From Gemmatimonadota bacterium (GTDB taxonomy: Bacteria > Gemmatimonadota > Gemmatimonadetes > Gemmatimonadales > GWC2-71-9): a DNA stretch of 18,008 nt. The notes beneath the pieces are model-generated. The model worked only from the letters and a program-made list of their open reading frames with translations, did not search any database and was not told where the DNA came from. The stretch covers positions 1-18,008 of the forward strand of contig JBDHKN010000092.1 of assembly GCA_039586365.1 (NCBI GenBank), written 5' to 3'. This document shows positions 6,937 through 17,051 of this stretch, in pieces (position 1 is the stretch's first letter; every line of letters starts with the position of its first letter). The position numbers and the translations under genes are program-made.

Positions 6937-7236
6937 TCAGGGAATGGAGTCGTTGCACTCCGGTATCCGGCCGAAGGCCCTATGATGCTCACGCAAGAGC
7001 TCCCGCTGCCGCGCGATCGGCCTGCCATGAGCCTCCGCTCTGAAATGCGTAGCTCTCTGAGTGCAGTCACCGGCGTGCCCCGCAAGGTGCTGGCGCAGTC
7101 GCGAGCGAACGCTATCTCTGGCTGTTCCGAAGTACACTGTCTCGCTGCTAGTCTCGAGCAGATAGACACCGGGCGAGTCGGGCGCCCTGTCCAGGTTCTC
7201 CAGCCTGAACGGGACGTGGTCCCCCATCATATGCAC
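6937..7236 (-). CDS. Small stand-alone GIY-YIG nuclease-like protein
   Basis: AGGAGG RBS; 'PDSPGVYLL...VYFG...VRSRLRQH...ATHF...RELL...PECN'. Confidence 0.75.
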   Translation of the reverse strand: MHMMGDHVPFRLENLDRAPDSPGVYLLETSSETVYFGTARDSVRSRLRQHLAGHAGDCTQRATHFRAEAHGRPIARQRELLREHHRAFGRIPECNDSIP

Positions 7237-8003: not shown

Positions 8004-8056
8004 TGCCCGCGGAGAGACTCGAACTCTCACGGAGTTGCCCCCACGGCATTTTGAGT
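8004..8056 (-). pseudogene. 3' fragment of tRNA-Leu(CAA), probable att-site duplication
   Basis: Minus strand: A-CTCAAAA (anticodon loop), TGCCG, variable arm GGGG-GCAA-CTCC, T arm GAGAG-TTCGAGT-CTCTC, acceptor 3' strand CGCGGGC-A. The 5' anticodon strand (GTGGA) does not pair, and the D arm and acceptor 5' strand are absent. Confidence 0.85.
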
Positions 8057-8210
8057 CCACTTACCTAGCTGAATAGCCTGCACAAACACAACACAGACTG
8101 CACGAGGCCGCCAGTCCTTAAGAAGTTCCCCCACAACAACATACGTCATGTCGGGCTCAGACCGTGAGAACGAGCTCGTGTGCATCCTGCGCAGGGCGTT
8201 CTCTTCAGTT

Positions 8211-8924: not shown

Positions 8925-8963
8925 AGTGGAATACTACCTACCTAAAATAGTGAATTGCAGAAG

Positions 8964-9323
8964 ATGGCCTCAAATGAAGCCAAGCGGTACCGACCCGTTT
9001 CAGCTCAGGTGTTTCAGATCCTACTGGCTGTGAGCGACAGACAACTGCACGGTTACGGCATTATCCGGGACGTGAAACGGCGGACCGGAGGCCAGGTCAT
9101 ACTCACGGCCAGCACGCTCTACTCTGCCATCAAACGGATGCTCGAAGCTGGACTTATGGCTGAGTCGGAAGAGCGGCCCGTGCCGGAACTCGACGACGAG
9201 CGGCGCCGCTATTACAGCATCACTGCTGAGGGGCTGCGGGTGTTACGGCGCGAAGCCGAGTGGTTACAGCAGCTCGCCGACATGGCGCGGGACAAGCGCA
9301 TCTTAAGACCGCGAGAGTCCTGA
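8964..9323 (+). CDS. PadR family transcriptional regulator (alternative start TTG 8955)
   Basis: 'FQILLAVSDRQLHGYGIIRDV...STLYSAIKRMLEAGLM...DERRRYYSITAEG'. Confidence 0.95.
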   Translation: MASNEAKRYRPVSAQVFQILLAVSDRQLHGYGIIRDVKRRTGGQVILTASTLYSAIKRMLEAGLMAESEERPVPELDDERRRYYSITAEGLRVLRREAEWLQQLADMARDKRILRPRES

Positions 9324-12058
9324 TGCGGTCTACCAACAGATCCGGGGTGCGTCCCTTTGTGGTGCGTGCTTACGCATGGCTCGCCATTGCCCTGCTGCCG
9401 CGGAGTTTCGCGGTGCAGTACCGCGACAGAATTGTCGCGGTCTTCTCCGACATTTGGCACCACGCCCTGCTCGACAGCGGCACGTGGCGCCGTAGCGCAC
9501 TATTGCTGCGGGAGTTCTCGGCCCTCAGCCACACTGTCCTCTGCGAACACTTGAATGTCTTGAGAGACGCCTGTTTCAAGTCCCCCGCACCCCACCGCGC
9601 TGAACGTGGCCCCAGCCGGAGGGCCGGTTGGCACATATCTGCTCTAGTGGGTGATCTCAAGTACGTCATACGCAGTTTAGCAAGAAGCCCAGGATTTGCG
9701 CTGGTTGCAGTGAGCACGCTTGCGCTGGGTATTGGTGCCGTTACGACCATCTTCAGTCTCATCAACGGCCTGCTGCTGCGACCCTTGCCGTATGCCGACT
9801 CTGCTGAACTCGTCTACATGTGGGAAAAGCTGGCTTCATTCGAGAACGCGTCGGTCTCTTATCCCAATTTCCTCGATTGGCGGGAGCGCAACCGGGTCTT
9901 CGAAGATTTGGCGACGTTCAACGACGGCAGCATCAACCTGACTGGCGTGGGGGATCCAGTCGAGTTGGACGTAGTGAGGGTTTCCGCCTCGATGTTCCCA
10001 ATCCTACAGCAGGAGCCAGAACTGGGTCGCACGTTCTTGCCCGAGGAAGACAGAGTCGGGGGCGAAAGGGTGGCAGTCCTGGCGAATGGGTTCTGGCGGG
10101 ATCAGCTCGGCGGTGACCCGACGGTAGTAGGCAAAACGCTAACCCTCGATGGCCTTCCCTACTCAGTGGTCGGGGTGATGCCGCGGCAATTCGTGTTTCC
10201 CCCGCAGGGCGGCCACGTCGACATCTACCTTGCCGTTGAGCAGTTCGCCGAGAACTGGATCGACGACCGGGACAATCACCCTGGGTTGGCGGTCATAGGA
10301 CGGCTGAGGCCGGGAGTCACTCTCGAGCAGGCTGCCCGTGACCTGGAGCGAGTCGCGCTCGAGTTGGAGGCGGAGTATCCGGACGTGAACGAGGGTAGTC
10401 GCGTGCACGTTGCCTCGCTGCACAAACGAATGACCCGCAATTTCCGTGAGCCGATGATGGTGCTGCTACTCGCTGTTGGCTTGCTGCTCATGATCGCCTG
10501 CACCAACGTGGCCAATCTGGTTCTGGCGCGCAGTACGGCACGGCAGCGCGAGATCGCCATACGTTCCAGTCTCGGTGCCAGCGGCTCCCGTATCGTCCGT
10601 TTGTTGCTGACGGAAAGCTTAGTCCTCTGGGTGGTCGGGGGCATGCTGGGTCTCGGGGTAGCCTCTCTGGCGACGCGGTCACTCGTTGCGCTCCGAGCGG
10701 ATGCTATCTCACCCATCTTCCATGTGGGTATCGATCTACTGGCCGTTGTTGTCACGCTGAGCGTTTCTCTGGTGACCGGTATGTTGTTCGGGCTGATGCC
10801 GGCGCTCAACTCCATACGGCTCAACCTGCTTGAGCATCTCAAGGAGGGAAGCCGCGCCTCGGGCGGCATGGGACGCAACCGACTCCGCAGTGCTCTCGTG
10901 GTGGCCGAGGTGAGCCTCTCTGTCGCTTTGCTGGTGGCGGCTGGCCTCACAGTCCGCAGCCTCTCGAACATGCTGGGGGCCAATCCAGGGTTCGATGCCC
11001 GCAATGTGCTGTCCGTCGAACTCAACCTGCCGCGCAGCCGCTATCAGGCAGAGGAGCAACGCACGGCTTTCCACCACCAGCTGCTGGATCGGGTCAGGCA
11101 GTTGCCGGGTGTTGTGTCTGCAGCTACCACGTATGTGGTGCCGGTGGGACCTGGGGGATGGCAGAATGCTTTTCACGTTGAGGGTGAGCCCCCAGAAAGA
11201 GACGGCGTTTACACGTTCGCGGAGGTGAGTTCTGTCTCGGACGGCTATTTCGAGACGATGGGTATCCCGCGGTTCCGGGGACGCGAGTTTGCGCGCAGCG
11301 ACGGACCCGATGCACCACTGGTGGTGGTGGTCGACGAGATGCTGGCCCAGCGCTATTGGCCGGGGGAAGCTGCTATAGGCAAGCGACTGAAGTTCGGAGA
11401 CTACACATCCGAGAACCCTTGGATGGAAGTGGTTGGGGTCGTGGGGCACGTGAAGGTCAACGGCGTGGTGCCCGAGGCACTGCCTCAGTTCTACCTCCCG
11501 CACGGGCAAGACAACGAGCGGGGCTACCACGTCATGGTTAAGACAGCTGGCGACCCAACGCAGCTAGTGGAACCGATTCGCCAAGCGGTGCTGGAGGTCG
11601 ATCCGACCCAGCCTCTGGCCGAGACCAACACCATGACGCACTACGTGAGACGGAGCACCAGGGACGCCAGGTTCTCCGCGTTGCTCCTAGGGGTCTTTGG
11701 GGCCGCCGCGTTGTTGCTCGCCGCAGTCGGCATCTACGGCGTCATGGCACAGGCGACGGCTGAGCGCACTCACGAGTTGGGAGTGAGGATCGCCCTAGGT
11801 GCGACCGGTGCAGCAGTGCTCAGCATGGTAGTTCGTCAGGCGATGGTGCGAGTTGCGTTAGGGGCCATGCTCGGTCTCACCCTGGCCGCGGTCCTTGGTC
11901 GCTTACTGGCCAGTCGCCTGTTTGGCGTGTCGGCGCTTGACCCGGTCACATTCGTTGTATCGCCACTGCTGCTGTCGCTGGTTGCGCTGGTCGCGAGCCT
12001 GGTACCTGCTCGCCGGGCCATGAGGGTCGACCCCCTTAGGGCCCTGCAAGAGGAGTAG
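9323..12058 (+). CDS. ADOP-type duplicated ABC transporter permease (MacB/FtsX-like)
   Basis: TGATG coupling to padR; 'DLKYVIRSLARSPGFALVAVSTLALGIGA', 'LMIACTNVANLVLAR...REIAIRSSLGA', 'RTHELGVRIALGA', 'PARRAMRVDPLRALQEE'. Confidence 0.95.
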   Translation: MRSTNRSGVRPFVVRAYAWLAIALLPRSFAVQYRDRIVAVFSDIWHHALLDSGTWRRSALLLREFSALSHTVLCEHLNVLRDACFKSPAPHRAERGPSRRAGWHISALVGDLKYVIRSLARSPGFALVAVSTLALGIGAVTTIFSLINGLLLRPLPYADSAELVYMWEKLASFENASVSYPNFLDWRERNRVFEDLATFNDGSINLTGVGDPVELDVVRVSASMFPILQQEPELGRTFLPEEDRVGGERVAVLANGFWRDQLGGDPTVVGKTLTLDGLPYSVVGVMPRQFVFPPQGGHVDIYLAVEQFAENWIDDRDNHPGLAVIGRLRPGVTLEQAARDLERVALELEAEYPDVNEGSRVHVASLHKRMTRNFREPMMVLLLAVGLLLMIACTNVANLVLARSTARQREIAIRSSLGASGSRIVRLLLTESLVLWVVGGMLGLGVASLATRSLVALRADAISPIFHVGIDLLAVVVTLSVSLVTGMLFGLMPALNSIRLNLLEHLKEGSRASGGMGRNRLRSALVVAEVSLSVALLVAAGLTVRSLSNMLGANPGFDARNVLSVELNLPRSRYQAEEQRTAFHHQLLDRVRQLPGVVSAATTYVVPVGPGGWQNAFHVEGEPPERDGVYTFAEVSSVSDGYFETMGIPRFRGREFARSDGPDAPLVVVVDEMLAQRYWPGEAAIGKRLKFGDYTSENPWMEVVGVVGHVKVNGVVPEALPQFYLPHGQDNERGYHVMVKTAGDPTQLVEPIRQAVLEVDPTQPLAETNTMTHYVRRSTRDARFSALLLGVFGAAALLLAAVGIYGVMAQATAERTHELGVRIALGATGAAVLSMVVRQAMVRVALGAMLGLTLAAVLGRLLASRLFGVSALDPVTFVVSPLLLSLVALVASLVPARRAMRVDPLRALQEE

Positions 12059-12277
12059 AACTCTGGGAACTAGACTCCGAGGCAATCCGATTCGCTGAGG
12101 GCAAGGCTGCAGCCGAGAGGCCAGAACCGCATACCTGGTACGTGATCAATCCGGCCCTGCACATCGCTGCATCGGGAAACCGACTTCGGATGACGGCGGC
12201 TGTCCAAGTACCTCAGTCTGCACATTTCTCTTTGTGAGCCCTGGGCGTCTGGCGGGGCTCGGGGGTTTCGTCGCTCC

Positions 12278-12307
12278 TTGTCCCGCCGATTGAGCCACCT
12301 GTAGCTT
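12278..12307 (+). promoter_or_regulatory. Candidate promoter TTGTCC-N18-TAGCTT (sRNA copy A)
   Basis: Both hexamers and the spacing are identical in copy B (15271-15300), while the spacer carries substitutions. Confidence 0.6.
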
Positions 12308-12312
12308 TCGTT

Positions 12313-12470
12313 AGGAGGCTGGTTTCGGGTATCGCACTCACTCGGTCTGTCAGGCCGAACATCGGCCTCCTGGACAAGGCCCCGAGCGGTCAGAACCGCT
12401 TCGACGATTCCGGTTGATACCCGGGGGCTCAGATCGTCGTTAGCCGGATCCTGCTCGGGGTTCTTGCATT
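12313..12470 (+). ncRNA. Putative two-hairpin small RNA, copy A (unrecognised family)
   Basis: Stem 1 is 12314-12328/12355-12370. Stem 2 is 12378-12389/12451-12462, with an inner helix 12402-12408/12433-12439. Pyrimidine-rich tail; homologous to 15306-15400. Confidence 0.6.
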
Positions 12471-12677
12471 TCCCCTTAGTTCGCGTTCCGGGATCTCAAC
12501 ACACCCTGAATGGCTCGCCACTGGTTTTAGATAACAGACCTCCATTGCAGTGGTGCGTCACCGCAGGGTGAGGATCTGGCCCCGCTGTCCCCTGTCTACC
12601 AGCAAGGTGTACATGCCGTCAACTTTCATAGAGGAGACAATGCCACCTGAGAGGCAGGCTGTAGAGAGGCAGATGTC

Positions 12678-12938
12678 GTGGCCGAAGTGAAGGAGCGGGA
12701 TAGACGCTATGCACGGCAGTTGCCGGACGAGTTCATTACGATGTCGGGGATGCCAGGTGACCGGCTCACGTTGCTGGTTGGTCGCCACTGGGCATCCCAA
12801 ACGGCACCGGCCCGTGCAGAACTGGCGCACGCATTGTTGCTCGTCCTGCAACCGCTGCTTGGTCCTGGAGCCGAGGTTACCGAGCGGAAGCGTCAGGCCT
12901 GTGAAGACATTGTGGCCAGTTGGCTGACCAGACAATAG
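12678..12938 (+). CDS. Hypothetical helical protein, possibly frameshifted from ATG 12640
   Basis: Protein-like sequence ending 13 bp before the RRM gene. The best RBS (GAGGAG 12631) serves an out-of-frame ATG at 12640 that gives only 16 aa. Confidence 0.4.
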   Translation: MAEVKERDRRYARQLPDEFITMSGMPGDRLTLLVGRHWASQTAPARAELAHALLLVLQPLLGPGAEVTERKRQACEDIVASWLTRQ

Positions 12939-12951
12939 GAACGGGTCCGAC

Positions 12952-13200
12952 ATGAACATCTACGTAGGCCATCTGTCGCACGATGTCACTGAAGAAGACT
13001 TGCGAGAGGCTTTCGAGGCGTTCGGGCAAGTCTCATCAGTCGACGTGATAAAGCACAAGTTCAGCGGCGAATCGAGAGGATTCGGCTTCGTTGAGATGCC
13101 GACCGAAACTGAAGCGAACGCTGCAATCGTGGGTCTCAGTGGTAAAGAGCTGAAAGGGCAAGCGCTCACCGTGAATACGGCTCGTCCTCGCAGAACGTAG
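12952..13200 (+). CDS. RNA recognition motif (RRM) RNA-binding protein
   Basis: RNP2 'IYVGHL', RNP1 'RGFGFVEM', and 'LKGQALTVNTARPR'. Confidence 0.95.
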   Translation: MNIYVGHLSHDVTEEDLREAFEAFGQVSSVDVIKHKFSGESRGFGFVEMPTETEANAAIVGLSGKELKGQALTVNTARPRRT

Positions 13201-13264
13201 CAGTGACTGTCGGTGCTCGCGGGCTCACTCATGACCCGTATGTGATCTCTGGTGAACTAGCTCT

Positions 13265-13489
13265 GTGTCTTGGCCGACCTGGTCGGTGAGGTTCCAGCGG
13301 TTCAGTCGTTGGGGAGGCACGGGTCCTCCAGTGCAGGAACGTCGGCAAAAAGAGCGCCGGTCCGACCGCAATTGGCGATGGGTGGGGGAGCTCATAGGCG
13401 ACCGCCGTCGAGTACGCTTTCCAAATGATGTCGAGCGTCGCAACGGGACGGAGCGCCGGTCCGAGGAACGTCGGTCGATCCATGACTGA
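13265..13489 (+). CDS. Small Arg-rich [E/D]RR-repeat protein
   Basis: ERRQKERRSDR...DRRR...ERRNGTERRSEERR. The start codon is uncertain. Confidence 0.55.
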   Translation: MSWPTWSVRFQRFSRWGGTGPPVQERRQKERRSDRNWRWVGELIGDRRRVRFPNDVERRNGTERRSEERRSIHD

Positions 13490-13669
13490 CGGTTGAGACG
13501 CAAACGAGAGCGCAGCACCCGCTGAGGTGGTTGCAGCAAAGACCCTGTGCAATGGGCTGTCCGTAGTGTCAGGATTCGACCCTGAGAGGATACCGAGCAG
13601 AGTGATCCCGGCCTCTGACGCGACGGTGGCTGCGACATCATGGTCGCTGGCCAGCCTTGAGGAGGTGTG

Positions 13670-14485
13670 ATGCGCGCTAGACACCCAACGATGAAGCATC
13701 ACTTCGCTAGAGTAGCACCGCGCTATCGCCAGATGCGGGACCTGGACGTGACCGCGGTCGGTGAGATAGCATGGATTCTCAAGCGCCTTGCGAGGTCTGG
13801 GTCCCGCATTGTGATCCTCGACGTGGGATCGGGAACCGGTAGATACCTTGAATCGGTTCTCGCCGAGTCCGGTCTGGAAGCGACACGCCGATGCTGTGCC
13901 GTCCGGTACGATGCCGTGCGCGAGATGCTGGGAGGAACCTCGCTCTTCGAGGGGTTGCCCAGCCGCTCTATTAAGTCGGTGGTCGGTCTTGCAGAGTGCC
14001 TTCCATTTGCCGCCAGTAGTATTGACGCCGTCCTGGCATTCAACGCTATCCACCACTTCGGCGCCACCGGGTTCCTGGCCGAAGCGGGTCGTGTGTTACG
14101 ACCCGAAGGCAGGGTGATCATCTACACCCGTACTCCGGAACAGAACCGCTGCACGGTGTGGGGAATATTCTTTCCTCGATTTGCCGACAAGGAGGATCGC
14201 CTCTTCACAGTGAGGGAGCTTACTGCTGTTGTGGATCAGACAGGAGCTTTCGGGAAGGTCGAGTTACGAGCTATTCCTTGGAGGGTCGAGACCGATTTGC
14301 GCCGCTTGATCGAACAGGCTCGAAGCGGTGCATACTCGACGTTTGAGTTCTACTCACGGAGCGAGTTCGAGAACGTTGTGGAGACTTTTGAGAGGCGGGT
14401 GCTGGATCACTTCGAGGATCCGTCGAAAATTGTCGTGCAGAATGATCACTTGCTTGCAGTTGCCACTAGGAGGTCGAGGACCTGA
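13670..14485 (+). CDS. Class I SAM-dependent methyltransferase
   Basis: GAGGAGG RBS; motif I 'ILDVGSGTG'; 'AECLPFAASSIDAV...AIHHF...EAGRVLRPEG'. Confidence 0.9.
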   Translation: MRARHPTMKHHFARVAPRYRQMRDLDVTAVGEIAWILKRLARSGSRIVILDVGSGTGRYLESVLAESGLEATRRCCAVRYDAVREMLGGTSLFEGLPSRSIKSVVGLAECLPFAASSIDAVLAFNAIHHFGATGFLAEAGRVLRPEGRVIIYTRTPEQNRCTVWGIFFPRFADKEDRLFTVRELTAVVDQTGAFGKVELRAIPWRVETDLRRLIEQARSGAYSTFEFYSRSEFENVVETFERRVLDHFEDPSKIVVQNDHLLAVATRRSRT

Positions 14486-14703
14486 GCTTACGGTGGAGTG
14501 AACGGGGCGACCGAGCCTCTTCCATAAGGCTGCGACCTCAAGTGCAGACTAGGATTCCCGCCGGCTCACAACGCGCGGTTGCTCGCACTCAAGGGGGTGC
14601 ACCCGCAATGCACCGAAACAAGGGACACGAGTACTCCGAAACAGTGATGATTGGCGCCTGGTGACCTTGGCACGACGGCGGGGTTGATTGAGAAGCAGGA
14701 TTA

Positions 14704-15240
14704 ATGGCGGGTTACGAGACCAGGTTGCTGTGGGCTGTCAAAGAGGTCTTGATGGCTATGGACCACGCCGAGGCCATGCGTGCGGCATTCGGGGAAGAGC
14801 CACGGTTCTCAGAGGAACAGCTCGAGCTGGCATTTGATTCGTTGACTGGTCTGTTGACCGAAGATGAACAAGCCGACTTGGTTCACTGGGTGTCCGACCG
14901 CAATCTCACTCAGGCGCACAGAGCCGAGATTCGTGAGACTGACGCTGAACTGCACCAAGAGCTGCTGACCCATCTGCGCGACGGGGAACCCTACTGGGAA
15001 CTCTATCGACGGCTACCGCCGCACCTACAAGCACATATGCGTCGCATACCTGGAATGATCTGCACAAAGGGCGAATGGTATCGGCGCCAGGTTTTTGTCT
15101 ATTGGCTCTCCCATGCTCCCCAGTGGTTGCAGCGGCGGTTCCGGCTTCCGCGGTTCGTTACGTGGTCGAAAGCTCAGCGACAAGCATTCAGTAGATGGAA
15201 AGAGTTGGATAGCCCGCCAGATGGAACAGAGGACCCGTGA
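14704..15240 (+). CDS. Hypothetical protein (start may be ATG 14752)
   Basis: Long ORF with an acidic helical N-terminal half and a basic, Trp/Arg-rich C-terminal half. No family recognised. Confidence 0.6.
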   Translation: MAGYETRLLWAVKEVLMAMDHAEAMRAAFGEEPRFSEEQLELAFDSLTGLLTEDEQADLVHWVSDRNLTQAHRAEIRETDAELHQELLTHLRDGEPYWELYRRLPPHLQAHMRRIPGMICTKGEWYRRQVFVYWLSHAPQWLQRRFRLPRFVTWSKAQRQAFSRWKELDSPPDGTEDP

Positions 15241-15270
15241 ACCGACGCGGCACCGCCAGTACGTCGGTCC

Positions 15271-15300
15271 TTGTCCTTCCAGTTGAGCCACCCTTAGCTT
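15271..15300 (+). promoter_or_regulatory. Candidate promoter TTGTCC-N18-TAGCTT (sRNA copy B)
   Basis: Hexamers and spacing identical to 12278-12307. Confidence 0.6.
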
Positions 15301-15305
15301 TCAAT

Positions 15306-15400
15306 AGGAGGCCGGATTCAGGTTCCCAACCTGAACACTAGCCTCCGGCCCCGAGCAGCAGAGTCGCGTTTCCATCAGTCCTGCTCGGGGTCTTTGTATG
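15306..15400 (+). ncRNA. Putative two-hairpin small RNA, copy B (unrecognised family)
   Basis: Stem 1 is 15307-15324/15328-15346 and stem 2 is 15347-15358/15381-15392, followed by TTTGTATGT. Homologous to copy A. Confidence 0.6.
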
Positions 15401-15541
15401 TCGCCTCTGGCGAACTCGCTGCGCTGCCAGAAGACGCCAGGGCTTGCACACGGTCGCCGCCCGCTGGCCAAACGCTGAATGTTCCGTAAAGTAGGCCCTC
15501 CCGACTGGAGATCGTGGCTTACAGGCGACTCTAGGGCCTCG

Positions 15542-15608
15542 ATTTCGCCAGGAGTATGAACTACGGAATGCGGCTTAACTTCGTGTCCACCAAATCGGGT
15601 CAAGTCCA
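15542..15608 (+). mobile_element. IS3-family right-end remnant (transposase C-terminus plus terminal inverted repeat)
   Basis: 'ISP / EYELRNAA*' (stop 15576-15578) resembles the end of IS3 OrfB. It is followed by GTGTCCACCAAATCGGGTCAAGTCCA, whose reverse complement TGGACTTGACCCGATTTGGTGGACAC resembles an IS3-family 5'-TG IR. Confidence 0.7.
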
Positions 15609-15905
15609 TACACTGTGTACATCCTACCGACTTCCTTTAATCCTAACCAGGATGGCAACTACATCTACGCCACGAAGAATGCCCAAGGTCAATGGGTGCC
15701 GGTCTACGTTGGGGAGGGAGATTTAGCCGATCGAGCGGGCGACAATCATCACCAAGCAGACTGCATCAAGAGGAAAGGTGCCACGCACTTTCACTGCCAC
15801 CTCAATCCGGCTGCAGGGACACGGCGGAGCGAGGAGGCCGATCCCTTGACTAGGTACACCAACGCCTATCAGCCGTACGGCTGCAACGAGAAACAAGGTG
15901 GGTAG
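15609..15905 (+). pseudogene. GIY-YIG nuclease-like protein, probably 5'-truncated by the IS3 end (could restart at GTG 15615)
   Basis: YTVYILP...GNYIYA...VYVGEG...R...DCIKRKGATHF...EEAD...GCN. The frame begins exactly at the IR boundary and there is no RBS. Confidence 0.65.
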
Positions 15906-16578: not shown

Positions 16579-16670
16579 GCCGGCCGCGGGGGACCGCGGC
16601 CGGCAGCTAACTGCAACGCGCCAGGGCCGAATCGCACGCAGAAGCTACGGCTGCAGACCCGATGTGGCTA
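16579..16670 (-). promoter_or_regulatory. Candidate promoter TAGCCA-N17-TAGCTT (16642-16670) and perfect 11-bp leader hairpin (16579-16604)
   Basis: GCCGGCCGCGG-N4-CCGCGGCCGGC lies between the -10 element and the RBS. Confidence 0.45.
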
Positions 16671-16805
16671 GGACAGGATCGCACCTAGCGTCTGGGCCCT
16701 GGCGAGGAAGAGCCTACTCGATCAGCTTTCAACAGTGAGCATCTCGGTAGGCGGTGACGTCCTACGCCTGTACGACGTCTCGTGTCGGGTGGAGTGTCGG
16801 TCTAG

Positions 16806-17051
16806 ATGTCGTCTAGCAGGAAGCATTCAGATAGCCATACCCTGACTCCTTACTCACGGGAAGACGAGGCGCGCATCCGCGCCAGGGCGAAGAACCCGGA
16901 TCTGGCGCTTGTGTGTCCTCTGTGCGTCGCCTCACTTTGCGTTGGCCCTCCAATCCAAGAAGGCCAGCACATGATTCGGCTGCTGGCATGTCCGATCTGT
17001 CGACGGTGTCTCAGGATCAAGGACATGCCCGAGAGACGAGAACTGAAGTGA
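16806..17051 (+). CDS. Small Zn-ribbon protein (CPxC...CPxC)
   Basis: CPLC and CPIC motifs. Paralogous to the N-terminus of 995..1606. GTGA overlap with the ferritin-like gene. Confidence 0.7.
   Translation: MSSSRKHSDSHTLTPYSREDEARIRARAKNPDLALVCPLCVASLCVGPPIQEGQHMIRLLACPICRRCLRIKDMPERRELK

Follow-up and report, generated by a model that had tools for sequence, protein, structure and literature searches.

The 18,008-nucleotide (nt) contig JBDHKN010000092.1 of a Gemmatimonadota genome assembly (GCA_039586365.1), referred to below at its full length as the window, carries two copies, A (12278-12469) and B (15271-15399), of a compact unit that comprises a -10-like box, two hairpins and a U-rich tail. 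Both copies are members of an uncatalogued, genus-restricted, multicopy sequence family, and in both the order is TTGTCC-N18-TAGCTT, 6 nt, hairpin 1, a short linker, hairpin 2 and the U-rich tail. Their parts are listed here (C8 is another contig of the same genome, G000, that bears a unit).

12278..12307, + strand: predicted promoter of copy A, TTGTCC-N18-TAGCTT (from the sequence; -10 register kept across units)
12314..12370, + strand: hairpin 1 of copy A; outer stem GGAGGC/GCCUCC, then a bulge
12324-12328/12355-12359, + strand: inner stem of hairpin 1 of copy A, around the 26-nt variable loop 12329-12354
12360..12370, - strand: opposite-strand GGAGG, 3 nt, then ATG (GTG in B and C8); candidate antisense target site, weak for its short spacing
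12379..12469, + strand: hairpin 2 and U-rich tail of copy A, predicted terminator; outer stem CCCCGAGC/GCUCGGGG, long irregular inner stem
15271..15300, + strand: predicted promoter of copy B, TTGTCC-N18-TAGCTT
15307..15346, + strand: hairpin 1 of copy B; loop shrunk to 9 nt (3 unpaired)
15348..15399, + strand: hairpin 2 and U-rich tail of copy B, predicted terminator

The unit and its family

A preliminary description of the window had reported A and B as a duplicated cassette, and the duplication is real: positions 12269-12330 and 15262-15323 form an ungapped alignment in which 50 of 62 letters (81%) are identical (BLAST E 2e-9 within the genome), with TTGTCC-N18-TAGCTT at both sites and GGAGG beginning 6 nt past the -10 box in each copy, as claimed. 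The compensatory change reported for stem 1 (TTCGG/CCGAA in one copy, TTCAG/CTGAA in the other) and the G-U versus A-U pair reported for stem 2 are likewise present, and the RNA sizes of about 155 and 95 nt given there agree with the 156 nt (A) and 93 nt (B) counted from hairpin 1 to the tail. Folding z-scores are -3.0 for A and -4.9 for B. The statement that no known riboswitch or small RNA could be recognized is in line with Rfam 15, in which the window matched only DUF805b (E 4.5), away from both copies, and ten homologue loci matched only mir-486, at 22 bits against a gathering score of 69. Small RNAs of Gemmatimonadota have received little description: an open-literature search, with subscription journals and supplements outside its scope, found no description of the family or of any Gemmatimonadota small RNA, and the main text of PMC5737381, a paper whose motifs are presumably covered by the Rfam searches, makes no mention of Gemmatimonad.

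Homologues were sought with covariance models, as the preliminary description had proposed, one (R1) built from 11 units and a second from 18; the family totals 19 units, eight of them outside the R1 training set. Six lie in G000, eleven in G002, one in G006 (same genus) and one on the metagenome contig L083. Five of the G000 units are full (A, B, C8:9472, C54:10961 and, on the minus strand, C51:27915), and the sixth, C86:11317, retains hairpin 2 only. Strong model matches occur in three of the eight genomes of the genus, the remaining genomes being 63-94% complete. Searches of the family (140 genomes), the order (148) and the class (148) gave no full unit outside the genus, at only 20-22 candidates scored per genome, so that remote homologues may escape; the weak matches inspected, a set without L125 and L126, were coding sequence or short terminator-like hairpins. 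Pattern scans of genome contigs yielded true units among matched loci in proportions of 0/0, 1/12, 3/9 and 0/1, loci met both by pattern scan and in G002 being the same sequences and counted once, and the metagenome scan yielded the L083 unit, one of seven, with a pattern that spans stem-2 insides of 38-68 nt and misses short forms like B. The G006 unit, too, was reached by pattern scan. There was no true unit among the 1, 9, 0, 0, 4 and 20 pattern loci of viral contigs, and no pattern match in annotated plasmids and phages. A BLAST search with copy A found the unit in none of 60 relatives, although diverged units exist in the same genus. A looser two-motif pattern, which matched 226 of 401 genomes, the level of its reversed control, was discarded.

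Upstream of the hairpins lies the -10 box. Of the 15 units whose 5' ends are intact, 13 bear TAnnnT (background frequency 0.0044 per position) at a distance of 6 nt from hairpin 1, or of 7 nt in G006, the other two reading TATATC and GATATT at this site; the box entered the training of the covariance model, but the -10 check on 11 units was made by pattern. The G006 unit is preceded by the promoter-like sequence TTGCTA-N17-TATGGT, and lexA and recA of G000 have TATATT at an apparent -10 position upstream. The -35 box is retained in the A-type subfamily only, the C51 type carrying a palindrome there. A consensus scanner called neither promoter nor the stem-2 terminators, its sole find being a small hairpin at 12446-12463, and therefore the promoter assignment leans on conservation.

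In a MAFFT alignment with a structure drawn by us, 93.6% of cells are paired; double changes affect 4 of 22 pairs (as high in 10 of 500 shuffles) and 8 cells (as high in 1 of 500). The model-fitted alignment has eight pairs with double changes but is biased toward the structure, and RNAalifold, run on an earlier, misregistered alignment, recovered hairpin 2 alone. In all five units compared, the fold of the plus strand is more stable than that of the minus strand, by 0.8-14.8 kcal/mol. The small-RNA family on a fixed scaffold that the preliminary description put forward is thus supported by the 19 homologues, the -10 register, the compensatory pairs, the strand asymmetry and the U-rich tail, its independent transcription standing as a prediction, and we consider it probable that the units are real small-RNA genes at all.

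The part that varies can be seen where the surroundings of two units are themselves duplicated. A and the C54 unit lie in one duplicated segment, which corresponds to window positions 12254-13486 minus 12698-12916 and includes the following:

12470..13486, + strand: segment duplicated with C54, including a gene for a single-RRM protein (12952-13200)

Between these two copies the RRM region is identical at 518 of 574 positions, the downstream spacer at 178 of 228, the two arms of hairpin 1 at 13/15 and 16/16, and the inside of hairpin 2 at 52/64; loop 1, at 15-16 of 33, is at shuffle level (mean 14.75) within a segment that is otherwise 78-90% alike. Similarly, A and C8 agree at 59/63 positions inside hairpin 2 and at 17/28 in loop 1, and G002 has loops of 11, 23, 26 and 55 nt between nearly identical stems. 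Loop 1 is partly single-stranded (mean unpaired probability 0.41-0.75). The earlier claim of unrelated loops in both hairpins accordingly stands for loop 1 and fails for loop 2, which is kept within subfamilies: the 61-nt "loop 2" of A is an extended irregular stem, and it is not freely variable because it is so largely identical in C8 and C54. As judged by these comparisons, loop 1 is the sole hypervariable part. Mosaic exchange between copies could explain its variation as well as selection; the promoter regions of B and C54 are 90% alike.

The outer stem of hairpin 2 is common to short gene-end hairpins in G000, G002, G003, G006, G182 and G254, and therefore looks like a lineage-typical terminator. 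In G000 a family of short imperfect hairpins with this stem and a T-rich tail has seven copies (C8:9403, C10:9329, C18:12493, C44:10985, C54:45346, C63:65650 and C74:297), several of which agree at every position over 27-29 nt; downstream of one of them, at about 0.9 kb, comes an integrase beside tRNA-Leu(TAA). A related element stands just before copy A:

12236..12266, + strand: degenerate short GC hairpin of the hairpin-2 family (-18.5 kcal/mol; similarity to C8 starts at 12238), likely terminator of the upstream permease transcript

Beyond copy B, and converging on it, a degenerate hairpin pair of the C74 type lies on the minus strand at 15427-15480, where it forms an apparent inverted repeat with 12234-12254.

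Genomic setting

The window contains a tRNA scar, on the island side of which the preliminary description had placed both copies:

8004..8058, - strand: 3' 55 nt of tRNA-Leu(CAA), an integration scar, 95% identical to the 3' part of the intact tRNA-Leu(CAA) of G002

The scar itself was found as described, and the way in which elements usually integrate at tRNA genes would put the island on its higher-coordinate side; no intact tRNA-Leu(CAA) was found in the G000 assembly. Zones within 10 kb of a tRNA scar or integrase make up 4.3% of the genome and contain four of the six G000 units. Integrase fragments are found near C51 and L107, and a phage-like open reading frame (ORF) lies beside C86. Ten of the 19 units come after a gene on the same strand, at its 3' end and usually past a hairpin. 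Five, in G002, diverge from a small Zn-ribbon ORF whose start lies 67-72 nt behind the -10 box; a further two are the second of a tandem, and two are truncated. Small-ORF families around the units recur across all three genomes. The gene directly before the C54 unit is one that we take to be of pilT type.

Several observations on the surroundings may be recorded in their own right. G000 is rich in stacked tRNA-targeted islands, with 11 phage-integrase matches and many tRNA 3' fragments (on C3, C8, C21, C37, C51 (twice), C56, C75, C76 and C78). Within the presumed island of the window, a PadR regulator is followed by a duplicated MacB/FtsX permease (8955-12058). The single-RRM genes at 12952-13200 and C54:11399-11644, both downstream of an RNA unit, are 97.6% identical. 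The stretch 12698-12916, which is present in the window copy only and not in its C54 duplicate, makes up most of ORF 12678-12938, a member of an unannotated family of about 86 amino acids with an "ARQLPD(E/D)F" start that has six copies in G000 (this one and those on C2, C3, C52, C64 and C130) and occurs also at L084 (2660-2923) and L020 (3176-3397). The Zn-ribbon proteins, of about 70 amino acids with a helix and a CxxC/CxxC motif, number 17 in G000 (including 995-1250 and 16806-17051 of the window) and are encoded in G002 on L037, L073, L107 and L109; they matched only unnamed Gemmatimonadota clusters in Atlas, no PHROG, and nothing in Foldseek at E<=0.001. Two small stand-alone GIY-YIG-like ORFs lie at 6937-7236 (minus strand, by Pfam) and 15615-15905 (plus strand, a resemblance by eye), and a short repeated motif at 15490-15545 is shared with C29:5890-5969 (94% over 33 nt) and C8:9997-10046. 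Right after a small minus-strand ORF, 16608-16690 resembles, by eye, a degenerate integron attC site.

Possible functions

Among the readings considered, the one toward which we lean, at somewhat less than even confidence, is that the predicted small-RNA genes encode antisense regulators of island-borne mobile DNA, of the type of FinP, RepX or counter-transcribed RNAs (ctRNAs), which have mostly lost their targets. RNA polymerase would start about 6 nt past the -10 box, and hairpin 2 with the U-rich tail would terminate a transcript of 90-175 nt. The exposed, fast-changing loop of hairpin 1 would begin pairing with an opposite-strand transcript, upon which the CCUCC arm would cover its ribosome-binding site; changes in the loop would prevent cross-reaction between paralogues. 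Of the copies seen today, most would be without the gene once under their control and persist in the island debris of a degenerate integrative element. This option, one of several offered in the preliminary description, is the best fit, and what speaks for it is the anatomy of the unit and its island context, together with an opposite-strand Shine-Dalgarno sequence and ATG or GTG inside hairpin 1 in three subfamilies. Descent of the family from antisense control RNAs of mobile DNA is likely.

A number of results weigh against this reading. The sequences are related, and covariation is thin because most outer-stem pairs never change. In the A type the Shine-Dalgarno sequence is 3 nt from the start codon, a rare spacing that 6 of 223 long-ORF starts share, and chance alone puts a start codon 3-10 nt after GGAGG 23% of the time. 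No conserved opposite-strand ORF runs over the units, the peptides being 6-49 amino acids long and unconserved, and loop lengths of 26, 28, 33 and 9 nt break the frame; no conserved opposite-strand promoter was seen by eye beyond hairpin 2. It is for these reasons that the units would be read as having mostly lost their targets. In ten of the 19 units, moreover, the opposite strand meets the 3' end of a convergent gene and not a gene start. No intact unit-bearing element was found in the viral, phage or plasmid collections, and the C54 contig is without an island marker. The association with islands was tested with a threshold and markers chosen post hoc, and A and B are not independent, which leaves 3 of 5 loci (p ~8e-4).

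The main rival, which we regard as unlikely, is a stand-alone family of paralogous small RNAs acting in trans, either through pairing of loop 1 with host mRNAs or through binding of a protein such as the single-RRM product encoded near A and C54. It would account for self-contained promoter-to-terminator units in unrelated contexts, tandem units included, and for a loop 1 that is in part unpaired, and it has a precedent in the multicopy, variable-loop C4-like Group 1 small RNAs of Acinetobacter baumannii, for which trans action is proposed (PMC5320573). The RRM gene, co-duplicated with A and C54, adjoins only these two of the 19 units. Eight loop or inner-stem segments had no G000 match longer than those of shuffles, so that the search for loop targets that had been suggested earlier gave nothing convincingly above that level; in a duplex search of ribosome-binding-site windows A and C54 did no better than shuffles (10/20 and 16/20), and C8 beat 20 of 20 shuffles by just 0.1 kcal/mol, on a 4Fe-4S gene. 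Searches of G000 (86% complete) turned up neither Hfq nor ProQ.

Distinctly unlikely, in our estimate, is a DNA-level, non-autonomous repeat, a hairpin unit like a miniature inverted-repeat transposable element or a repetitive extragenic palindrome (REP), that bears an outward promoter and terminator incidentally. The fairly sharp edges of similarity at promoter and tail, the mosaic copies, the sharing of the hairpin 2 outer stem with gene-end hairpins in six genomes, and outer stems conserved by sequence more than by covariation would all suit such an element. Yet the copies are few, those of the A type are 76-85% identical to one another, and in 60-nt flanks (two of the 19 units are cut by contig ends) neither target-site duplications nor terminal inverted repeats occur consistently; further points against such an element are the fixed register of the -10 box, a G-U strand bias and a one-sided U tail. 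In a comparison with REP/RAYT systems, the seven short hairpins related to hairpin 2 were set beside the only Y1 transposase match of G000, which is on another contig and whose locus is without a unit.

Less probable again is a cis-acting leader (a riboswitch, an attenuator or a put-like nascent RNA) for plus-strand genes downstream. Two adjacent hairpins straight after a promoter, followed by a U-rich stretch, could serve as one, and A and C54 share the RRM gene downstream; the reading fails because the downstream neighbours are otherwise unrelated and can be convergent, the L074 unit facing a convergent gene end about 80 nt away. No alternative anti-terminator fold is evident, and there was no Rfam match to a cis element.

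More speculative than a leader is a modular small-RNA chassis, in which paralogues swap or rapidly rewrite one recognition loop, so that a single Gemmatimonadota genus would have an antisense or guide system that is naturally re-programmable, does without Hfq and ProQ, and keeps its gene islands in check in trans; this we think very improbable. We doubt still more that the RNA is a type I antitoxin-like partner of the opposite-strand Zn-ribbon ORF of five G002 units, in spite of the fixed divergent layout and palindromic promoter region there. The RNA does not overlap that ORF, and the reading fails because leader pairing is no better than that of shuffles (24-93 of 100 as good) and no unit of G000 has one of the genome's 17 Zn-ribbon paralogues next to it; the protein is not a hydrophobic peptide but has a predicted helix and Zn-ribbon, without a clear fold match, and the antitoxin option of the preliminary description finds no conserved toxin ORF. 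Its further option is an RNA of the guide type (bridge-, omega- or CRISPR-like), with loop 1 as the part that directs a trans-acting nuclease or recombinase. This option has the constant scaffold, the loop changing far faster than its flanks and the several copies per genome in its favour but retains only the slightest probability, given loops of 3-55 nt that often fold on themselves, no genomic loop match above chance, a Pfam scan of 21 window ORFs that showed no effector (no nuclease, recombinase or reverse transcriptase), and only integrase fragments and one weak HNH among 30 neighbouring ORFs compared with PHROGs.

Two other identities were tried and set aside. The LexA operator of this lineage, a TTCGG direct repeat with 6-nt spacing, is present at lexA and recA and absent from A, B, C8 and C54; in G000 the TTCGG-N6-TTCGG repeats overlap the TATATT box, twice upstream of lexA (C126) and once upstream of recA (C62). 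For an attC site, no matching inverse core site was seen by eye in the unit.

The family matters because it offers defined predicted transcripts that can be tested, in a lineage that yielded no Hfq or ProQ, and because its loop variants form a natural series on a constant scaffold. Should the antisense reading be true, the family would mark the control module of a mobile element, targeting tRNAs, that is so far undescribed; if the loops are re-targeted in trans, it would show how antisense RNAs of mobile elements turn into host regulators. Its narrow range and the lack of a found target limit its present interest. New is the narrow, uncatalogued small-RNA-like family, which is real; antisense control RNA as a kind is known, and function is what we infer.

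Comparison with known systems

Of the type I toxin-antitoxin systems, among which IstR1/tisB is listed (PMC5415839), the unit has the arrangement of a small RNA gene beside an opposite-strand small ORF (5/19 units), but its partner is a Zn-ribbon protein, pairing does not exceed chance, and the partner is missing beside the window copies. Sok/hok is another example of the type.

C4 of phages P1 and P7 and the Group 1 small RNAs of A. baumannii resemble the unit in being multicopy and linked to islands or phages, in their constant scaffold with a variable loop, and in the GG start of the first helix (PMC5320573); C4 has three stem-loops (P1-P3) and complementary target sites. The unit differs in its unbranched hairpin 1, in having no C4 match in Rfam, and in the absence of any loop target above shuffles in G000.

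The plasmid replication counter-transcripts (pSK41, pT181 RNAI) are like the unit in size range and two-stem-loop layout (PMC5703833), and in five units of G002 the start of a divergent gene lies directly behind the promoter, as in a counter-transcript; unlike in the plasmids, no rep gene or origin lies near the units, and a leader transcript over the unit is without evidence.

Closest in anatomy are FinP (with traJ) and RepX (with repA). These RNAs of 75-79 nt, against 90-175 nt for the unit, consist of two stem-loops and a U tail over the translation start of an invariant opposite-strand gene (PMC8136791), and they share with the unit the two stem-loops and 3' U tail, a promoter of their own (predicted here) and a setting in mobile DNA. 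The units, by contrast, have no sequence or Rfam match to them and no invariant opposite target gene, occur in several chromosomal copies, and are found without the FinO/ProQ of the FinP system. They belong to none of the families tested, and it is FinP and the ctRNAs that they resemble in anatomy.

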